56,358 bases of DNA from assembly GCA_041664865.1 (NCBI GenBank), contig JBAYJU010000001.1, forward strand, positions 1 to 56,358. Direction: 5' to 3'. The notes below the pieces were generated by a model. The model searched no databases. It was not told the DNA's origin and was given only the letters and a program-made list of their open reading frames with translations. Both the position numbers and the translations under genes were made by a program. The stretch is from Minisyncoccota bacterium (GTDB lineage: Bacteria > Patescibacteriota > Minisyncoccia > Phycocordibacterales > Phycocordibacteraceae). The stretch's first letter is position 1, and each line of letters starts with the position of its first letter. Of this stretch, positions 2,858 to 40,579 are shown in pieces.

Positions 2858-3487
2858 ATGTTCCGACTCATCGACATCATATTCCCGCCCCGCGCGGATG
2901 AGATCGTAATGCGAGACACTTCTGATGATGACTTCCTCTCGCTCGTCTCTCCACGGCTCGTGCCGGCTACACGACCTGGGACAGTAGCGCTACTACCCTT
3001 CTATCACCCGTCTGTTCGATCCGCAATTCACGAAGCGAAATATCATGGCAATGAACGCGCGCGTCGGCTCCTAGCGCTCGCTCTTGCCGAATATCTGTGC
3101 GATTCCGACGATGTAGGACATCGGAAGTCCTACATCGTGCCGGTGCCACTCGGGAAAGCTCGGCGCAGAGAACGAGGATTTAATCAGGCAGAGGAGGTCG
3201 CGCGGCGTGCAATCCATAACCTCGGGAAAGAAAGCACACAGAGATTCAAACTCGATACCAGCCTGCTCGTGCGCACTCGCGAGACTGTCTCTCAAGTCTC
3301 GCTACCGAGACTCGAGCGCGAAGAAAACATGCGCGGCGCCTTCGGCGCCGCGCATCCCGCCGACCCTACCAGCACATATCTGATTATCGACGACGTGCTC
3401 ACCACAGGTGCCACGCTCCAAGCAGCAATCGACGCGCTCAAATCTGCTGGTGCCACCAATATCATCCCGCTCGCCTTAGCGCACTAG
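2858..3487 (+). CDS. ComF-family phosphoribosyltransferase-like protein
   Basis: C-terminal PRTase motif YLIIDDVLTTGATL and GFNQAE, typical of ComFC; 209 aa. Confidence 0.75.
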   Translation: MFRLIDIIFPPRADEIVMRDTSDDDFLSLVSPRLVPATRPGTVALLPFYHPSVRSAIHEAKYHGNERARRLLALALAEYLCDSDDVGHRKSYIVPVPLGKARRRERGFNQAEEVARRAIHNLGKESTQRFKLDTSLLVRTRETVSQVSLPRLEREENMRGAFGAAHPADPTSTYLIIDDVLTTGATLQAAIDALKSAGATNIIPLALAH

Positions 3488-3504: not shown

Positions 3505-4506
3505 ATGGCTGAGATGTTTAAAGGTAAACGCGCAGTGTTCCCTGCTGGAGAACAGAGAAAATTTCTAGATGGAATCTGCCAAAAAGAAACACTCGCTCGC
3601 ATTGCGCTTATCTGCAAATGCTCCGAGCGCACGGTTCGCGATTGGCGCAGAGAGAAATTCTCCATGCCGCTTGGCGCCACACACGCACTATCTACTCATT
3701 TTAACGTACCGATTTCTGAAAAGATGTGCATTCGTGATGCGTATGCACATATTCCAAGAGCAAGCCGTATGGGAGCTGCAGCAACAATCAAGAAATACGG
3801 AAGCATCCCTCGCAACGAAGAACACCGGAAGAAGCAGTGGAGACTGTGGTGGGAATCGACAGGCAAACTTGCCAAAAATCCAATTCTCGAATCAAAAATC
3901 GTTTATAGACCGAAGCATGGCGCGAAGCTCGCTGAATTTATCGGCATCATGATGGGCGATGGAGGTCTCACCATGTATCAAGCCATAGTCACACTTCACC
4001 ATGTGGATGATTTAGAATACGCTTCATTTGTGAAAGGCCTCATCAAGAGACTTTTCAAAATCGAACCAAAAATGTATCACTCTCCGAAAAATTCGGTGAA
4101 TGATATTGTCGTGTCCAGAAAAAAATTGGTTATATATCTGCATGAACTAGGGCTACCAATTGGAAACAAGATCGACCAGCGACTAGATATACCTTTGTGG
4201 ATTAGATGTAACCGAACTTTCGCGATTGCATGCTTGCGCGGACTAGTTGATACGGACGGATGTGTCTTTACGCATCGTTACCGGGTAAAGGGCACGTGGT
4301 ACGCCTACAAGAAACTCTCCTTCACGAGCGCATCGAAACCATTACTGGAATCCGTGCATGATTTATTACAAGAACTAGGATTCCATCCCAGAACAACAGC
4401 GAAAGACGTACGCCTTGATAGGACAGAAGACATAAGACGCTATTTCAAGATAATCGGAAGCCACAATCCGAAACATTTGAGAAGATACGAAAATACGCTA
4501 GGATAG
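3505..4506 (+). CDS. LAGLIDADG-family homing-endonuclease-like protein with N-terminal HTH-like region (free-standing)
   Basis: Two LAGLIDADG motifs: FIGIMMGDGGL and LRGLVDTDGCV; 333 aa. Not embedded in a recognisable intron or intein. Confidence 0.8.
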   Translation: MAEMFKGKRAVFPAGEQRKFLDGICQKETLARIALICKCSERTVRDWRREKFSMPLGATHALSTHFNVPISEKMCIRDAYAHIPRASRMGAAATIKKYGSIPRNEEHRKKQWRLWWESTGKLAKNPILESKIVYRPKHGAKLAEFIGIMMGDGGLTMYQAIVTLHHVDDLEYASFVKGLIKRLFKIEPKMYHSPKNSVNDIVVSRKKLVIYLHELGLPIGNKIDQRLDIPLWIRCNRTFAIACLRGLVDTDGCVFTHRYRVKGTWYAYKKLSFTSASKPLLESVHDLLQELGFHPRTTAKDVRLDRTEDIRRYFKIIGSHNPKHLRRYENTLG

Positions 4507-4513
4507 CGATACA

Positions 4514-4603
4514 GGATGGGTGACTGAGTGGCCGAAAGTACCACACTGCTAACGTGGCAGGAGCGAAAGCTCCTCGAGGGTTCGAATCCCTCCCCATCCG
4601 CCA
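4514..4603 (+). tRNA. tRNA-Ser (anticodon GCT), CCA encoded
   Basis: Acceptor GGATGGG/CCCATCC, 3-bp D stem, anticodon loop CT-GCT-AA, long variable arm AGGAGCGAAAGCTCCTC, T arm GAGGG-TTCGAAT-CCCTC, G-CCA. Confidence 0.9.
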
Positions 4604-4702
4604 GTAGTTTTGAAAAGCGAGCAGTGAAATCCCCTTATTTTAAGGGCCCATCTTAAAAACGAAATTTATAAAAACAGCTGAACCAGCAAGGGATTCGAAC
4701 TT

Positions 4703-5194
4703 ATGAAAATAATGATTTTTACAGAAGGTACGATTTTGATGCATAAAAATGCTTCGGGTTTGACGCGGGAAGAAATCGTTAAACAAGTTCAAGACGAAGA
4801 ATCCTCAGTTCATGATTATAGTTTTTATATACCAGTTGGTAACGCCGTTAATAAAATTAAATTATGGCAAGACCAAGGTGCTGAGATTTTGTATCTAACA
4901 TCCCGAAAGCGACAAGAAGAAATTAAAGAGATATCAGGAGTGTTAAAGAAATACGATTTTCCTGAGGGCAAGCTTCTGAGCAGAAAAGATGAGCAGGAAT
5001 ATAAGGATGTTGCAGAGGAGACGGTGCCAGACATATTTATAGAGGACGATTGTGAAAGTATCGGTGGTATCAATGAGATGACCTACACGCATATAAGCTC
5101 TGACTTAAAGGGCAAAATCAAATCAATACCCGTAAAGGAATTTGGAGGAATTGATTATTTGCCCGATTCAGTTAAAGATTTAAAAACGTTATAA
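4703..5194 (+). CDS. Hypothetical protein in an AT-rich islet (vaguely HAD-like, lacks the DxD nucleophile motif)
   Basis: 163-aa ORF. It is visibly more AT-rich than its surroundings, lies immediately 3' of tRNA-Ser and is closed by a terminator. Confidence 0.55.
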   Translation: MKIMIFTEGTILMHKNASGLTREEIVKQVQDEESSVHDYSFYIPVGNAVNKIKLWQDQGAEILYLTSRKRQEEIKEISGVLKKYDFPEGKLLSRKDEQEYKDVAEETVPDIFIEDDCESIGGINEMTYTHISSDLKGKIKSIPVKEFGGIDYLPDSVKDLKTL

Positions 5195-5233
5195 ACCTCT
5201 AACTTCGGGACATCATCACCGCAAAATCAAAAC

Positions 5234-5270
5234 ACAATCGCCGGCGCGAAGCGCCGGCGATTGTTTTTTG
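5234..5270. terminator. Bidirectional terminator hairpin
   Basis: acaatcgccggcgc-gaa-gcgccggcgattgt followed by tttttg, with an A-tract upstream. It sits between convergent genes. Confidence 0.75.
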
Positions 5271-5293
5271 ATTTGTAACAAAAACAGTGACGC

Positions 5294-5512
5294 CTATACC
5301 TGACACGAGTTGCACTGCCCTTTGCTTGTGAACACAAGCATAAGTGCCGAGAGACCTACGAGCAAGTAGACGAAAGTCTCTACTGATGGCCATGAACCGA
5401 GAAGAAGATTGACTACATTCCAATTGCCGCCCATATAAGAACCGAGCGCTACGAGCCCCCAGTTGAGCCCGCCGATGATGACGAGCAAGAACATTATGCA
5501 ATGCATTTTCAT
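5294..5512 (-). CDS. DUF378-like small membrane protein
   Basis: ..IIGGLNWGLVALG..NLLLG.. pattern; 72 aa, two TM segments. Confidence 0.6.
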   Translation of the reverse strand: MKMHCIMFLLVIIGGLNWGLVALGSYMGGNWNVVNLLLGSWPSVETFVYLLVGLSALMLVFTSKGQCNSCQV

Positions 5513-5631
5513 GCTAGATGAGAATTATTATCGCGGTGGATAACCCGCTCACAACAGTATGGCTCATTTATTGCGACCGAAAAGACACCCTGTGCAAAAC
5601 TCTCTTACAATTCAGCTATACTGACTACATC

Positions 5632-6342
5632 ATGTTTCCATCACCAATCTACGTCTCGCTGGCCGTCCTCGTTATTGTGCTCGTATTGATTCTTATGCGA
5701 CCGCGGCGATTCTTCTTCGTACGCCATGGTGAGACACTTCTGAACTCAGAGCATATCCGGCAAGGCGAAGACGGCAATCTTTCAGAAAAAGGGCGGCGGC
5801 AGGCAGCACAAGTCGGTGCAGCACTCAAGAGCCTGCCCATCGAACGCATCATCTCGAGCACCTACCCACGCGCTAGAGAGACTGCGCAGATTATCAATAC
5901 GTATCTGAATGTGCCAGTGATTTTCTCAACGCTTCTCACCGAGCGCCGCAACCCGAGCGAAATTATCGGCAAGAAGACTCATGACCCTGATGTCATACGA
6001 ATAGTTGATGCGATGGATCTCGCATATCACGATGATGACTATCGCATCTCAGATGAAGAAAATTTCTCTGATGAGAAAGAGCGTGCGCGCAAATGCCTGA
6101 ACATCCTTGCGAGCCAGGGAGCGCACGAAACAGTCGTAGTCACGCACCACCATTTTCTCAAGATGCTCATCGCGTATGCGCTATACCATGAGCGACTCCA
6201 TGCAGGTGATTTCATCAAGCTGTCGTTCTTCAACGTATCAGATAACGCCGGTATAACAGTGTGCGAATATCACCCATGGAAGATGTTCTCCGCGACTCGC
6301 GGCTGGCAGATCGTGAGCTTCAACGAAATTCCAGAAGGATAA
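5632..6342 (+). CDS. Histidine phosphatase (phosphoglycerate-mutase family), N-terminal membrane anchor
   Basis: FVRHGET motif. I placed the start at the internal ATG 5632 (MFPSPIYVSLAVLVIVLV..), because the longer ORF from 5518 abuts the divergent gene. Confidence 0.7.
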   Translation: MFPSPIYVSLAVLVIVLVLILMRPRRFFFVRHGETLLNSEHIRQGEDGNLSEKGRRQAAQVGAALKSLPIERIISSTYPRARETAQIINTYLNVPVIFSTLLTERRNPSEIIGKKTHDPDVIRIVDAMDLAYHDDDYRISDEENFSDEKERARKCLNILASQGAHETVVVTHHHFLKMLIAYALYHERLHAGDFIKLSFFNVSDNAGITVCEYHPWKMFSATRGWQIVSFNEIPEG

Positions 6343-10490: not shown

Positions 10491-12431
10491 ATGCAACCAT
10501 CACCAGCACCGGCTCCAGCGCCGATCCATCCTACAGAGCCAGACACCAGCCCGCGACAAGCGGCGCCGAGAAGTGGCGCACGCCCTCCTCGCCCATTCGA
10601 TCGGAGCGGCCCACGCCCCTCTCGCTCGCCTGCCGGAAGCAGGCAGGGAGCAGCACGCCCAGGCAGCGCGACACGACGCATCCAGCGGATACTCCGCCGC
10701 CCCACACCTACACGAGTTCGTGCCTCTGTGGACTACTTCCCTGAACCAGCAGGGCCTACTACCGTGCGCATCATCCCACTAGGTGGTGTCGAGGAAGTCG
10801 GCCGCAACATGACAGCAGTCGAGATAGGCGCAACTGGCGACATCATCGTGTTCGACGCTGGATTCCAATTCGTCTCTGAAGATTCCGCACCAGGAGTCGA
10901 CTACATACTCCCGAACACGAAATATCTAGAGAAGAACGCTTCGCGAGTTAAGGGAGTCATCATCACACACGGGCACCTCGACCACATCGGCGGGATTCCA
11001 TTCCTACTTCCCCGCTTCGGCACACCACCTATCTACACACAGAACCTCACGTCGATCATGATCCAGCGCCGCCAGGAAGAATATCCAGACGTTCCCAAAT
11101 CTGAAATGGTCATCGTAGAAGCCGGGCAGTCTGTCACGATCGGCTCGACGCGTGTTAAGTTCTTCCCTGTAACACACTCGATCCCAGACTCGATGGGCGC
11201 ATCTGTGGAAACACCACAAGGGAACGTCATCGTCTCTGGAGACTTGAAACTCGACCACGAAGACGGAATACCGTCTGAGCGCGAACAGAAGACCTGGGGA
11301 GATCTCGGCAAAGACAAGAATATATTCATGGTCGCCGACTCGACCAATGCCGAACGAGACGGGTTCTCTATCCCTGAAGCGCGCGTAATCCAGACACTCG
11401 AAGATATAATCAAGACTGTCTCTGGACGCCTAATCATCGGCACATTCGCGTCACAGTTCGAGCGCATGATTCACATTATGGAATCCGCTGAGAAGCACGG
11501 AAAAAAGATTATCCTAGAGGGGCGATCTATCAAGACCAATCTTGAGATTGCCGAGAAGACAGGTCTCCTCAAGGTGAAGAAGGAGACGTTCATCCAGTCG
11601 CAAGACATCGGCAATTATTCGCCAGACAAGATAGTCATACTATCGACCGGCGCGCAGGGGGAGGAATTCGCAGCGCTCATGCGCATCTCGACCGAACAGA
11701 ACAAATACATCACGCTAAACGATCGCGACACTATCGTGCTCTCATCGTCTGTCATCCCTGGAAACGAAATCTCCGTGCAGAAGTTGAAAGACAATCTCTA
11801 CCGACACAACGTGACGCTCATACACTATCGCTCATCAGACGTGCACTCGACTGGCCACGGGAACTCGGGCGAGCTCGCCTGGATAAACAAAATGGTGCAT
11901 CCGACATTCTTCATGCCAGGCTACGGCTACCGATCTATGACTACCTGCCACGCAAAGGCTATCGAGCAGTCTGGCTTCCCGCGCGAGAATATAATTATCG
12001 CGGACAACGGCTTCGTCATCGACATCGAGAATGGCGACAAGCTGAATGTGCACAAGCAACGAGTGCCTTCCGCTCCTATGGTCGTCGACGGATTCACTAT
12101 TGGCGACATACAAGAGGTCGTGATACGCGATCGCCAGTCGCTAGCCAAGGACGGCATGTTCGTAATCATCGCGAGCGTGAACCTGAAGACCGGCAAACTC
12201 CGCAAGTCGCCAGATATCATCAGTCGCGGATTCGTGTACCTACGAGAGTCACAGGACCTCTTGAATGAGGCGCGACTTCTGATCAAGAAGACGATTGAAG
12301 ACTCGACGCACAACATGAACCCTATCGACCTCGACTATGTGAAAAACAACCTCACCGACGTCATGGCGGGGTTCCTCTTCGCCCGCACCAACAAAGCCCC
12401 GATGGTGATTCCTGTCCTCATCGGTCTTTAG
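10491..12431 (+). CDS. rnj: Ribonuclease J with Pro/Arg-rich N-terminal extension
   Basis: Metallo-beta-lactamase HGHLDHIGG plus beta-CASP and C-terminal domain pattern. The first ~90 aa are low complexity (PAPAPAP, RPPRP). Confidence 0.85.
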   Translation: MQPSPAPAPAPIHPTEPDTSPRQAAPRSGARPPRPFDRSGPRPSRSPAGSRQGAARPGSATRRIQRILRRPTPTRVRASVDYFPEPAGPTTVRIIPLGGVEEVGRNMTAVEIGATGDIIVFDAGFQFVSEDSAPGVDYILPNTKYLEKNASRVKGVIITHGHLDHIGGIPFLLPRFGTPPIYTQNLTSIMIQRRQEEYPDVPKSEMVIVEAGQSVTIGSTRVKFFPVTHSIPDSMGASVETPQGNVIVSGDLKLDHEDGIPSEREQKTWGDLGKDKNIFMVADSTNAERDGFSIPEARVIQTLEDIIKTVSGRLIIGTFASQFERMIHIMESAEKHGKKIILEGRSIKTNLEIAEKTGLLKVKKETFIQSQDIGNYSPDKIVILSTGAQGEEFAALMRISTEQNKYITLNDRDTIVLSSSVIPGNEISVQKLKDNLYRHNVTLIHYRSSDVHSTGHGNSGELAWINKMVHPTFFMPGYGYRSMTTCHAKAIEQSGFPRENIIIADNGFVIDIENGDKLNVHKQRVPSAPMVVDGFTIGDIQEVVIRDRQSLAKDGMFVIIASVNLKTGKLRKSPDIISRGFVYLRESQDLLNEARLLIKKTIEDSTHNMNPIDLDYVKNNLTDVMAGFLFARTNKAPMVIPVLIGL

Positions 12432-12436
12432 CCGAT

Positions 12437-12459
12437 TGTGGGGTTTCGTAAACCCCACA
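12437..12459. repeat. Palindromic unit (TGTGGGG..CCCCACA family), copy 1
   Basis: tgtggggttt-cgt-aaaccccaca. Its reverse complement matches 13368-13390 at 22 of 23 positions. Confidence 0.8.
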
Positions 12460-12479
12460 TAGCAGAGTGAAAGCAGAAA

Positions 12480-12538: not shown

Positions 12539-13264
12539 TCAGCTTGCAAGAAATGCCAGCAGACTGACCACCATGCAACCGAAATAGATACACTTCCCGA
12601 TGCAGTTTAGTTTCTCTTTCTTCTCTTTTCCTACCGCGTTTACCTCAGCGCTAAGACATAAAGGAATAGAAATTCCAGCAACAACACCGGCAGTAGCAGC
12701 CATGACACTGAAGGGAGAGAAAACCAAAGTGGTATAAGTCCATGTGAATATCGGGCAAACAAAAGCAATAAGTAAAAGTATGAAACCTACTAGACATACC
12801 CAATCATGCACTTTCTCCTTCTGAGCTAAATTGAACACCAGAACCAGGAACAACTCTTCCGCCAGAAACGCTACCAACCACAACAGAAAAAACGGATTAA
12901 AACCAATCTGTGGTCCTAGATTTAGGTCGCGCACCAGATGTATGCCTGCAGCATCTTTAATGACACCAATGTCAACAATGTCCTCTGTTCTGACATGAAG
13001 CATCCCGACCCGTTCACCGTGCGTACTGTGTGTCTTTATCGGCACCACTGTGTCAGGATTGTTGTACGCCTCCTTCCATTTGTCGCCGTAATCGAGCACG
13101 CCCGTATCGAACACTTGTTCGATACGTATGGTGTTTGGCGACCGCGGATACACGATCATCAGCTCGCCAGTCCCCAATTCCTCAACGATTACAGTTTCGG
13201 CAAACGCCACCCACGAAATCATAAGGGCGGCAAACGCCCCCAACAACACCATGATTTTCTTCAT
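12539..13264 (-). CDS. Hypothetical membrane protein (signal peptide, extracytoplasmic domain, about 4 TM)
   Basis: Start at ATG 13262-13264 behind GGGAGG. Begins MKKIMVLLGAFAALMISWVAFA. GC looks lower than in the neighbours. Confidence 0.6.
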   Translation of the reverse strand: MKKIMVLLGAFAALMISWVAFAETVIVEELGTGELMIVYPRSPNTIRIEQVFDTGVLDYGDKWKEAYNNPDTVVPIKTHSTHGERVGMLHVRTEDIVDIGVIKDAAGIHLVRDLNLGPQIGFNPFFLLWLVAFLAEELFLVLVFNLAQKEKVHDWVCLVGFILLLIAFVCPIFTWTYTTLVFSPFSVMAATAGVVAGISIPLCLSAEVNAVGKEKKEKLNCIGKCIYFGCMVVSLLAFLAS

Positions 13265-13367
13265 CTCTTTTCCTCCCAATATTCTGTTTGAAAGACCAAA
13301 ATCGGCTCGCGCCAATCGTTTAATTTCTGATTTTAAGATACCACGCTTTGCGTAGCCTGTACAGAGA

Positions 13368-13390
13368 TGTGGGATTTACGAAACCCCACA
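13368..13390. repeat. Palindromic unit (TGTGGG..CCCCACA family), copy 2, inverted relative to copy 1
   Basis: tgtgggattt-acg-aaaccccaca. Confidence 0.8.
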
Positions 13391-13447
13391 TCCCCCGCGG
13401 CGCCTTCGGCGCCCCACTGTATTCTGCATGTGTTATTCTCATATAAA

Positions 13448-38633: not shown

Positions 38634-39404
38634 ATGACAATAAAAGGCCGTCTGCACCCTATTACCATCGCTACACGCGAGATTGCCGACATATTCGGCC
38701 GTATGGGCTTCGGCATCGCCTACGGCCCTGAGCTCGAGGACGAGGACCACGTATTCAACGGGCTAAACATACCTCCCAATCACCCGGCTAGAAGCATGCA
38801 GGACACCTTCTGGGTGAAGGATGCAGTGGGCAAGCTCCTGCGCACGCACGCGACCTCGGTTTCATTCCGTGAGCTCGAGCGACTAGCGAAAGAGGGTGGC
38901 ACCGAGCTCAGGCGTATCATGCCTGGTAAAGTCTTCCGCAATGAAGCGACTGACGCGACCCACGAAGCGCAGTTCTACCAGATCGACGGATTCGCAGTCG
39001 GGCCGAAGGGTACGGTCACTCTCGCCCACTTGAAAGGAACGCTTGAGCGATTCTATCGCGAGTACCTAGGATCTAATGCCCAAGTACGATTCCGTCCCAG
39101 TTTCTTTGGGTTCACCGAGCCGTCTGTTGAGGTGGATGTGTGGTTCCAGCCGGCTGGCAAAGAAGGAAAGTGGCTTGAAGTCGCTGGCGCTGGCATGTTC
39201 CATCCGAATGTTATCAAGAACGCCGGGCTAGATCCGGAAAAGATTGCCGGGTTTGCCTTCGGCGGCGGGCTCGAGCGCCTGATTATGGTAAAGCATGGTG
39301 TACCAGACGTGCGACTCTTCCACTCGGGCGACATCCGTTTCATCTACGGATTTGATCAGAAATGTAGGACTTCCGATGTCCTACATATAGAAAATAAAGT
39401 ATGA
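38634..39404 (+). CDS. pheS: Phenylalanine--tRNA ligase alpha subunit, catalytic core only (256 aa)
   Basis: ..NIPPNHPARSMQDTFWV.., ..FR.E..DATH..QF.Q.DG.., ..FAFGGGLERL.M... Confidence 0.9.
   Translation: MTIKGRLHPITIATREIADIFGRMGFGIAYGPELEDEDHVFNGLNIPPNHPARSMQDTFWVKDAVGKLLRTHATSVSFRELERLAKEGGTELRRIMPGKVFRNEATDATHEAQFYQIDGFAVGPKGTVTLAHLKGTLERFYREYLGSNAQVRFRPSFFGFTEPSVEVDVWFQPAGKEGKWLEVAGAGMFHPNVIKNAGLDPEKIAGFAFGGGLERLIMVKHGVPDVRLFHSGDIRFIYGFDQKCRTSDVLHIENKV
39362..39386. repeat. Palindromic unit (ATGTAGGAC..GTCCTACAT) forming the 3' tail of pheS
   Basis: atgtaggac-ttccgat-gtcctacat, translated as ..CRTSDVLH.., 15 nt upstream of the pheT ATG. Confidence 0.8.
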
Positions 39405-40579
39405 AAGTAACCCGAGAACAGTTGCAGAAATATTTCAAAGCGCCACTTCCGAGTGTCGAGGCGCTTGCTGAGGCGTTCACATTTCATGCGTTCGAGCTCG
39501 AAAGCATCGATGGAGACATGCTCGATATTAAAGTGTTGCCGAACCGTGTTGCCGACTGCGCCACAGCAGAAGGCGTAGCGAGCGAGCTAGCGGCTATACT
39601 CGATGTGCCACTCAAGGGAACTGCGACTCCAGATTACTCGGAATCGCCGACTGTCGCAGTAACTGTCGCAGGAGTGAACGCAATACTCGGGTCCGATTTC
39701 TCTAGCGAGGAATTGCTCGATGTGTTTCGCCGATTACAGTTCCGTGTCGAAGTCGACGGCGAAACACTTAGCGTTTCTGCTCCAGCACCACGCACAGACA
39801 TCTCGATTCTGGAGGATGTAGCCGAGGAGGTCGGCCAGATACTCGGATATGATCGAGTTGTGGCAAAGGAGTTGTCCATGTGGGACATATCATGTCCCAC
39901 ATCAGATGTAGGACATGATATGTCCCACATGCCCGACCAGGCGCGGTATCGTGGCATCGAGAAGGTAAAAGACTTTCTGGTTGAGCGAGGCTTCACAGAG
40001 ATTTCAACACAGTCTTTCGCCAAGAAGGGCGATATCGTGCTCGCGAACCCGCTAGACAAGAGCAAGCCGGCGCTCCGCACAAATCTAGACGAGAATATGG
40101 CAGACGCACTAGTGCGTGCGAAACAATATGCCCCTCTAGTGCTCGAGCCTGGGCAGAAACCGAAGCTTTTCGAGATTGGTACTGTATTTACGAAAGACGG
40201 CGAGCATATTGTTGTTAAGACATCAGAACCTGTTTCCGACTTGCCTGAAATTAAAGACGCACCGGACTACGTGCCAGTGCCGTATGAACTAGGCGCATAC
40301 AAGCCATTCTCCCTATACCCTTTCATCACGCGCGATATCGCATTCTGGGCTCCGTCTGGCACTGATGTTCGACTTACGAAGTCGAACATCGAGAAAGAGG
40401 CTGGTGAGCTTCTGGTGCGCCTAGACCAATTTGATACGTTTGAAAAAGACGGCCGTACGTCATACGCATTTAGGCTCGTATTCCAGTCGATGGAGCGCAC
40501 ACTTACAGACGACGAAGTGAATCCTGTTATGGACACCATCTACGCGGCGCTTCGCGCCGCGGGCTTCGAGGTCCGATAG
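39401..40579 (+). CDS. pheT: Phenylalanine--tRNA ligase beta subunit, strongly reduced (392 aa)
   Basis: B5-like ..PRTDISILEDVAEEVGQILGYDRV.., a catalytic-like core, and a C-terminal FDX-ACB-like ..YPFITRDIAFW... ATGA overlap with pheS. Confidence 0.85.
   Translation: MKVTREQLQKYFKAPLPSVEALAEAFTFHAFELESIDGDMLDIKVLPNRVADCATAEGVASELAAILDVPLKGTATPDYSESPTVAVTVAGVNAILGSDFSSEELLDVFRRLQFRVEVDGETLSVSAPAPRTDISILEDVAEEVGQILGYDRVVAKELSMWDISCPTSDVGHDMSHMPDQARYRGIEKVKDFLVERGFTEISTQSFAKKGDIVLANPLDKSKPALRTNLDENMADALVRAKQYAPLVLEPGQKPKLFEIGTVFTKDGEHIVVKTSEPVSDLPEIKDAPDYVPVPYELGAYKPFSLYPFITRDIAFWAPSGTDVRLTKSNIEKEAGELLVRLDQFDTFEKDGRTSYAFRLVFQSMERTLTDDEVNPVMDTIYAALRAAGFEVR
39877..39931. repeat. 55-nt near-perfect palindrome (two tandem 25-nt units) inside the pheT coding sequence
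   Basis: Unit A 39878-39902 atgtgggacat-atc-atgtcccacat; unit B 39906-39930 atgtaggacat-gat-atgtcccacat. Both strands translate to ..WDISCPTSDVGHDMSHM... Confidence 0.9.

Follow-up and report, generated by a model that had tools for sequence, protein, structure and literature searches.

Palindromic units in pheT and pheS of a Minisyncoccota genome are probably in-frame copies of a REP-like element associated with a RAYT-like gene

In the IS200/IS605 insertion sequences, recognition of hairpins at the element ends is an established mechanism. Systems that combine GTAG-type repetitive extragenic palindromes (REPs), or inverted REP doublets (REPINs), with REP-associated tyrosine transposases (RAYTs) have reportedly been described by Nunvar (2010), Bertels & Rainey (2011), and Ton-Hoang (2012). 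Di Nocera et al. (2013; PMC3733652) treated the GTAG and CGTC super-families of REPs, the REPtrons, and GTGG variants (O. terrae), and they reported dimers with spacers of 1-2 bp as well as in-frame intragenic REPs in other phyla, including some in tRNA synthetase and replication/repair genes. In the same work, the short intragenic repeats of R. conorii (the Rickettsia palindromic elements [RPEs] RPE-4 and RPE-6) were counted among the CGTC repeats, and other R. conorii genes were noted to carry longer palindromic RPE-1 insertions. REPINs have been described as almost exclusively extragenic. Here, we analyzed a 56,358-nucleotide (nt) stretch of a Minisyncoccota genome (GCA_041664865.1; contig JBAYJU010000001.1, positions 1 to 56,358), hereafter the window, in which 25-nt palindromic units lie in frame in pheT and pheS, the genes of the two phenylalanyl-tRNA synthetase (PheRS) subunits. 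We concluded that the units are probably non-autonomous copies of a GTAG-type REP and that the 55-nt palindrome in pheT is an inverted REP doublet (REPIN), both belonging to a REP/REPIN-RAYT system, because units of this family flank a Y1 RAYT-like gene in related genomes and match the variants found at its flanks. Palindromy here is a property of the DNA element, not of the protein.

The palindromes were found in pheT and in the tail of pheS at the positions given for them in an earlier note on this DNA (Table 1), and PheT homologues point to Patescibacteria (Minisyncoccota/Paceibacteria). The pheT palindrome has 27-nt arms with 96% complementarity, and the frame of the 392-residue open reading frame (ORF) stays open through the doublet, which contributes residues M160-M177 (MWDISCPTSDVGHDMSHM) to the linker that follows the B5 domain. 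The peptide encoded by the insert is SMWDISCPTSDVGHDMSHMPDQAR, and ELSMWDISCPTSDVGHDMSHMPDQAR is an example of a tryptic peptide that spans it. About 19 added codons had been claimed for this site; we counted 18 codons in place of 5, a net gain of 13, and the linker (GYDR to DQxR) measures 26 residues in the window versus 13 in 95 of the 108 orthologues. At the end of pheS, the last 13 codons include one REP unit, and the C terminus reads GFDQK-CRTSDVLHI-ENKV versus GFDEKKV or GFDTKEKTA in orthologues (each followed by the stop codon), which are 9-11 residues shorter, so that the unit adds 9 codons net. The ATGA stop/start overlap of pheS and pheT is kept despite this extension. The alignments thus bore out the expectation of the earlier note that the units are extra residues relative to most orthologues. 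A further pheT unit (40365-40389), degenerate in sequence and perfectly self-complementary, causes no net change in length.

When folded as single-stranded DNA, the 55-mer reached -26.3 kcal/mol (z = -9.4), the pheS unit -7.5 kcal/mol (z = -4.7), and the 40365-40389 unit -12.2 kcal/mol (z = -7.0); single units overall ranged from -7.5 to -12.3 kcal/mol (z, -4.7 to -7.0), with an 11-bp stem and a 3-nt loop. In an AlphaFold2 model based on a 26-sequence alignment, PheT residues 156-178 were placed between the B5 domain and the next helix with a predicted local distance difference test score (pLDDT) of <50 and no secondary structure, i.e., the insert is predicted to occupy a disordered linker, and the region of the 40365-40389 unit was modeled as well folded. 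Because the palindrome reads alike on both strands, an antisense ORF (39634-40080, minus strand, 148 amino acids [aa]) is open as well. The ORF list confirmed that it carries nearly the same peptide (WDISCPTSDVGHDMSHM), and we treated it as spurious.

To define the family, we searched 185,579 species, each represented by one genome, for the pattern ATGTRGGAC-N7-GTCCYACAT, which the canonical units of the window fit with GTAG or GTGG inside the stem, and found at least 115 matching loci from at least 55 assemblies. Among the matches listed, to which the unit counts below also refer, nearly all were labeled Paceibacterota, Kaiser-, Nomura-, Staskawicz-, or Portnoybacteria, 'Saccharibacteria', Patescibacteria, or unclassified metagenome-assembled genomes (MAGs). 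Four obvious outsiders (Streptomyces, Lentzea, a cyanobacterium, and a deltaproteobacterium) were singletons whose inner sequence is unrelated, as chance would give. All units begin with AT-GTAG-GAC or AT-GTGG-GAC. At stem positions 5/21, 84 units have A-T, 56 have G-C, and 3 have a mismatch, and positions 10/16 show all four Watson-Crick pair types (128 of 143 units); this covariation supports the 11-bp stem. There are at least 12 units in the richest MAG, and each assembly has one or two inner-stem variants. Doublets are inverted across a 3-nt spacer in the window and likewise in two other loci (L001 and L002), and 11 further neighbors lie at a 28-nt offset. The palindrome is longer than 25 nt in 52% of the copies and at least 3 bp longer in 28%, versus about 1.6% by chance, with C...G and A...T as the commonest pairs flanking the 25-mer. 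This extension suggests that the unit measures 27 nt or more; at 27 nt, or nine codons, single copies would stay in frame, as would doublets at 54 nt.

In these properties the family resembles the GTAG-type REPs and REPINs, which are likewise short palindromes (20-40 bp, compared with 25 nt here) forming a stem-loop, carry the GTAG/GTGG tetranucleotide, have covarying stem variants, occur as inverted doublets that fold into one long hairpin, and are dispersed in multiple copies, with one or two families per genome and, in REP systems, tens of copies. Unlike in classic REPs, GTAG lies within the stem and is mirrored by CTAC, the whole 25-mer is palindromic, and the orientation of a unit is set by the 3-nt loop alone.

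A candidate transposase gene was found beside the units in related genomes. In locus L004, a 226-aa ORF (L004:2853-3533) with the motifs NHYHLLL and HYLHLNP is preceded by a unit 37 nt upstream and followed, about 10 nt past its stop codon, by an inverted one; a third unit, encoding LHVGRTTSYI, lies in frame inside it. Relatives of this ORF (~220 aa) were present in 18 of the at least 115 loci, usually in the same arrangement, with flanking units about 40 nt upstream and about 10 nt downstream (L004, L063, L094, L058, L076, L071, L084, and others); the two flanks are inverted in most loci where both were found, and many loci have the in-frame third unit within the ORF. The NCBIfam model REP_Tyr_transpos was matched by 13 of 13 aligned members (best E = 2.9e-13, below the curated cut-off of 80 bits) and Pfam Y1_Tnp by 12 of 13 (best E = 2e-8), and H75, H77, and Y134 are invariant in the 13 sequences. 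Y1 transposases (ISDra2 TnpA and E. coli TnpArep) were the only PDB profile matches with E <0.1, at weak values of 0.006-0.02; in the alignment to TnpArep (4er8), NHYHLL corresponds to EHMHCI and HYIHLNP to DYIYINP. Among the matches listed, the inner-stem variants of an assembly's units match those flanking its RAYT-like gene, which occupies one locus per contig set, one MAG having two divergent paralogues.

This arrangement, a Y1 HUH transposase-like gene flanked by inverted units, is that of a REPtron, seen in related genomes and not in the window. The RAYT-like proteins are divergent, scoring under the NCBIfam cut-off, and the system further differs from known REP systems in its Patescibacteria host (candidate phyla radiation [CPR]), in the strong preference for one reading frame, and in the in-frame unit often found within the RAYT-like ORF. 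It resembles IS200/IS605 elements (IS608 and ISDra2) in the putative HUH and Tyr motifs, aligned in the best PDB matches of the RAYT-like profile, ISDra2 TnpA and TnpArep. The transposase gene of IS200/IS605 elements travels together with its ends, forming a multi-copy insertion sequence, whereas here it is the short hairpins that are dispersed. Three features of the RAYT-like ORFs were also observed. The internal unit lies about 140-170 nt from the ORF start (L004, L063, L094, L076, L058, L071, L083, and L015), its reading frame differs between lineages (NVGRTTSYI versus MWDFVSPT), and a conserved C-terminal region of ~90 aa (YRWSS..DY...NFPS) extends beyond the stretch aligned to solved Y1 transposases.

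Another precedent, raised in the earlier note, is provided by the RPEs. The analogy is fair, since both are palindromic repeats in frame in essential genes that are tolerated as extra peptide, but the closest known system is GTAG-type REP/REPIN with RAYT. If the units were homologous to RPEs, they would form an RPE-type family without a dedicated transposase. Such a descent would account for the common phenomenon of in-frame palindromic inserts in essential genes, often dimers, that encode short peptides. However, the short intragenic RPE-4 and RPE-6 of R. conorii are counted among the CGTC-tagged repeats, for which no dedicated transposase is known (PMC3733652), and some RPEs are longer palindromic insertions, whereas the units described here measure 25 nt (doublets, 55 nt), are GTAG/GTGG-tagged, and are physically tied to a RAYT-like gene, with no sequence resemblance to RPEs or to CGTC repeats. 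Apart from the few outsiders, the units listed are also confined to Patescibacteria. We therefore regard homology with RPEs as very improbable and the resemblance as functional only. Since in-frame REPs have already been catalogued, the phenomenon is a known one, and the RPE analogy is one of function, not of family membership. A limited literature search on RAYT or REP in Patescibacteria/CPR returned nothing relevant, in line with the statement of the earlier note that such insertions were undescribed for CPR.

By analogy with RAYT and IS200/IS605 enzymes, the RAYT would recognize a unit folded as a hairpin in single-stranded DNA and would cut and rejoin this hairpin, thereby spreading and refreshing copies in trans. 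Most landing sites would be coding, the genomes being very gene-dense, and purifying selection would keep only open-frame copies in tolerant places, i.e., inter-domain linkers, variable loops, and C-terminal tails. Copies that persist would be translated, here as 18 residues in the PheT linker, as a PheS tail longer by 9 residues, and in the variable linker of a ComF-like protein. The in-frame TAG of the consensus would have been lost from unit 1 of the pheT doublet, which has TGG where the family consensus would give TAG.

The genomic distribution of the units bears on this scheme. Among the matches listed, 94 of 137 units (69%) lie within ORFs of at least 150 aa versus 85% of random positions in the same loci; units are thus about two-fold enriched between genes, and most are intragenic even so because the genomes are so dense. 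The family differs in this respect from REPINs. Extragenic location is nevertheless a typical rather than a defining feature of REPs, with intragenic exceptions documented in other phyla (PMC3733652). The ten longest host ORFs were all real genes, encoding DnaE, four AlaRS, two class I aminoacyl-tRNA synthetases (aaRS), ArgRS, a FAD oxidase, and a Mur ligase. The commonest among the 90 host ORFs were PheT (10), Pol III delta'/tau-type subunits (8), AlaRS (4), and class I aaRS (3), along with TsaD, TrmD, UvrC, and Mur ligases. As a separate observation, a DnaE fragment of a Paceibacterota MAG (L006:865-3726) contains an intein with a LAGLIDADG domain, and a REP doublet lies within its helix-hairpin-helix domain match, at about residue 711.

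The 94 intragenic units are distributed over the three frames as 78:10:6 (p = 5e-17). In the preferred frame, 78 units read nAT-GTR-GGA and encode x-V-G-x-x-x-S-Y/H-I/M; 10 are read as ATG-TGG-GAC and 6 as nnA-TGT-RGG. This bias indicates that the units are under coding constraint; as the remaining frames bring Trp, Cys, or a stop codon, we infer that selection acts on the encoded peptide. An alternative reading is that the inserted peptide itself is what selection maintains, e.g., as a Cys-, His-, Met-, and Asp-rich loop for metal binding or interaction, and that palindromy is incidental. The frame preference would fit this, as would the similar peptides that several orthologues have at the same position of PheT, but most orthologues do without the peptide, which is predicted to be disordered, and the same DNA is also found between genes, on either strand, and in each of the three frames. 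Moreover, the inner stem differs by genome while the units of a doublet stay reverse-complementary, which points to constraint at the nucleotide level; a selected peptide would predict recoding that breaks the palindrome while the peptide stays, the opposite of what is seen. We hold this alternative to be highly improbable.

Several PheT orthologues, only 58-64% identical to the window protein, have a similar peptide at the same linker. The earlier note had named, as evidence against its proposal, orthologues carrying the same residues without palindromic DNA; a similar peptide was indeed present, but every examined case was encoded by palindromic DNA. The doublet of L001 is ATGTCGGACCTACGAGGTCCTACAT-CGA-ATGTAGGACCTCGTAGGTCCTACAT and that of L002 is ATGTGTGACGTACGACGTCCCACAT-TGG-ATGTGGGACGTCGTACGTCCCACAT; inner bases vary by lineage, and these two doublets resemble that of the window in that their two units are reverse complements of each other. 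In all three, unit 1 is off-consensus at position 5 (TGG in the window, TCG and TGT in the two orthologues), a departure that removes the in-frame TAG which ATG-TAG-GAC would create. The nearest relatives of unit-bearing PheTs (70-81% identity) have the canonical 13-residue linker, from which it follows that the linker has been hit independently about five times or more, with identical boundaries in four cases. We compared the linker DNA of filled (window, L001, L002, L032, and L123) and empty (L120, L121, and L122) genes and found codon replacement, of 15 nt by 54 nt or of 9 nt by 27 nt; no shared target, duplication, or microhomology was detected in this comparison beyond the 9-15 nt replaced. 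Two more sites recur in PheT, one at about residue 81 of long-form proteins and the other at the start of the FDX-ACB domain, where L041, L090, and L102 and proteins P0004, P0010, P0012, P0026, P0033, and P0040 have canonical units and the same length as unit-free orthologues. Simple insertion was considered for every copy and rejected for the ComF-like gene and this second pheT site, which show no net length change. Similar recurrence was observed in two other genes: a ~385-aa ORF has a unit at the same position (about residue 157-162) in L020, L075, L055, and L100, and the AlaRS units of L066, L046, and L112 share one common site. As in pheT and the ComF-like gene, each of these units has the inner-stem variant of its own genome.

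This recurrence could alternatively mean that the hairpins are retained for a cellular function, i.e., that they are selected cis-acting DNA or RNA structures (serving, e.g., to bind a protein, to pause transcription or translation, or to signal mRNA processing or stability) and not tolerated selfish insertions, a proposal that is compatible with a REP/RAYT origin. It would fit the sharing of occupied sites between distant genomes (the linker and the second site of pheT, the ComF-like gene, a Pol III subunit, and the RAYT gene), the persistence of perfect self-complementarity in the 40365-40389 unit through changes on both arms, and intergenic copies (L054 and L067) that lie between A-runs and T-runs and resemble bidirectional terminators; RNA-level and gyrase-related roles of REPs are also discussed in the literature. 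Most orthologues, however, keep the 13-residue pheT linker without an insert, which is thus dispensable, and dozens of unrelated genes have units, which are read in three frames. Template switching within quasi-palindromes can, moreover, keep the arms symmetric without selection. We consider a selected cis structure improbable.

Several results weigh against the REP/REPIN-RAYT assignment and the scheme of spread built on it. Within the 56-kb window, no RAYT gene was detected by tblastn or a six-frame profile search, and the RAYT-like proteins of the other loci match known families at the modest scores given above (under the 80-bit NCBIfam cut-off; E = 0.006-0.02 against PDB). Neither transposition nor excision nor filled/empty polymorphism was seen between close strains, the available close relatives being identical. 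A 25-nt unit alone cannot preserve the frame, the codon replacement at filled sites (54 nt for 15 nt in pheT) is not predicted by simple cut-and-paste, the ComF-like gene and the second pheT site show no net gain, and the independent gains at the pheT linker share identical boundaries. Nor does simple insertion account for the finding that orthologous sites hold the variant of their respective genome. That the units are translated is deduced from intact ORFs.

A more specific version of the REP/RAYT reading would address three of these points. In it, the system has turned largely intragenic in Patescibacteria, with units at a limited number of in-frame 'landing pads' within essential genes (PheT, AlaRS, Pol III subunits, and the RAYT gene itself), where RAYT would repeatedly overwrite them in situ, hairpin for hairpin. 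Such an exchange would explain the identical boundaries, the frame-safe codon replacement, and the genome-own variants at orthologous sites; we put it forward tentatively and rate it as rather unlikely. Co-option of the hairpins, or of the encoded x-V-G-x-x-x-S-Y-I/M peptides, is a further possibility.

The window contains, in 56 kb, four canonical units (two in pheT, one in pheS, and one in a ComF-like gene) and three degenerate ones, which agrees with the expectation of the earlier note that further copies exist, as do the many units in related genomes. The ComF-like unit is an exact reverse complement of the pheS unit (25 of 25 nt) and folds at -12.3 kcal/mol. It occupies a variable linker, which is not lengthened overall compared with an orthologue lacking the unit, and the orthologue in L086 has a unit with a different inner stem at the same site. 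ATGTRGGAC half-sites number 8 in the window versus 0.43 expected, a count that none of 100 shuffles reached, and the degenerate units (40365, 12436, and 13367) came from a relaxed scan for self-complementary arms, in which shuffles gave about 0.03. Chimeric reads can yield perfect palindromes, and an assembly or foldback artefact had been named in the earlier note as a possible refutation. We found, however, that two independent assemblies of the same population, ENA ERZ27249449 (L118) and JGI 3300037810 (L119), are 99.99-100% identical to the window over all pheS/pheT units. Because three assemblies from different samples and pipelines agree, an artefact is excluded at the assembly level; the same architecture recurs in many public MAGs, the reading frames are intact, and the chance that the palindromes arose in this way is close to nil.

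Table 1. Units and genes discussed, with their positions in the window
Feature	Coordinates	Strand	Remarks
ComF-like phosphoribosyltransferase ORF	2858-3487	+	
REP unit ATGTAGGACATCGGAAGTCCTACAT	3111-3135		In frame (DVGHRKSYI) in ComF-like phosphoribosyltransferase ORF
Variant unit TTGTGGGGTTTCGTAAACCCCACAT	12436-12460		Intergenic, just past stop codon of 10491-12431 ORF
Variant unit ATGTGGGATTTACGAAACCCCACAT	13367-13391		Inverted relative to 12436 unit
pheS	38634-39404	+	256 aa, class II core domain; from ORF list; Pfam tRNA-synt_2d E = 8e-80
REP unit in pheS tail ATGTAGGACTTCCGATGTCCTACAT	39362-39386		Read as CRTSDVLH(I)
pheT, short form	39401-40579	+	392 aa: B5, catalytic-like module, FDX-ACB
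REPIN-like inverted doublet in pheT	39877-39931		Unit 1 + CAG spacer (39903-39905) + unit 2
pheT unit 1 ATGTGGGACATATCATGTCCCACAT	39878-39902		
pheT unit 2 ATGTAGGACATGATATGTCCCACAT	39906-39930		
Degenerate pheT unit ATGTTCGACTTACGAAGTCGAACAT	40365-40389		Peptide DVRLTKSNI, start of FDX-ACB domain

Both PheRS subunits of the window are short: PheS consists of the core domain only, and PheT has no B3/4 domain, which is present in relatives of ~590 aa. Long and short length classes both occur among close Patescibacteria homologues. The variant units at 12436 and 13367 have ..GGGGT/ACCCC.. arms and inverted loops (CGT and ACG), and the ~900-bp segment between them holds a predicted membrane ORF (12539-13315, minus strand, 258 aa). 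In the syntenic locus L026, this segment is absent, and a single unit (ATGTAGGGTTTCGTAAATCCTACAT) stands at the junction, an arrangement that suggests gene gain or loss at a REP site. A free-standing 333-aa ORF (3505-4506) with an N-terminal helix-turn-helix and a LAGLIDADG_3 domain lies between the ComF-like gene and a tRNA gene (4514-4600), beside a stretch of low GC content (0.44 at 4001-6000); a tie between this ORF and the palindromic units was considered and rejected, there being no association in other loci. At gathering thresholds, Rfam returned nothing on the window besides two tRNAs, and a known RNA family at the palindrome was rejected, the only matches being generic hairpin matches to microRNA models far below threshold. 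No rRNA or noncoding RNA was found at the three-unit loci.

The pattern ATGTRGGAC-N7-GTCCYACAT is a simple DNA signature that is nearly specific to Patescibacteria. Canonical units were also present on MAG contigs with non-CPR labels, namely L008 and L009 (CAZSRG01, 'Planctomycetia'), L094 (DASVZE01, 'Chloroflexota'), and L005 (JADGBR01, 'Omnitrophota'), and L094 has in addition a REP-flanked RAYT-like gene that is 75% identical to the one of Nomurabacteria. These contigs, flagged by the unit signature, may be mis-binned CPR sequences.

Taken together, our results add a host clade that appears to be new for in-frame REPs to a phenomenon known from other phyla. REPIN-RAYT systems serve as a model of mobile DNA that persists where genes are densely packed. 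In bacterial genomes that rank among the smallest and densest, such elements seem to persist mainly through translation inside essential genes, and they recur at the same linkers of aminoacyl-tRNA synthetases and of proteins for replication. Cost-benefit theory for elements of the REPIN-RAYT type can thereby be tested in nature. The elements also account for a class of odd inserts of low-complexity appearance in CPR proteins, with consequences for annotation, alignments, phylogenomic marker genes, and structure prediction. The finding would be weightier still if a distinct mechanism underlies the recurrent, frame-specific, and genome-homogenized occupation of fixed sites within essential genes.

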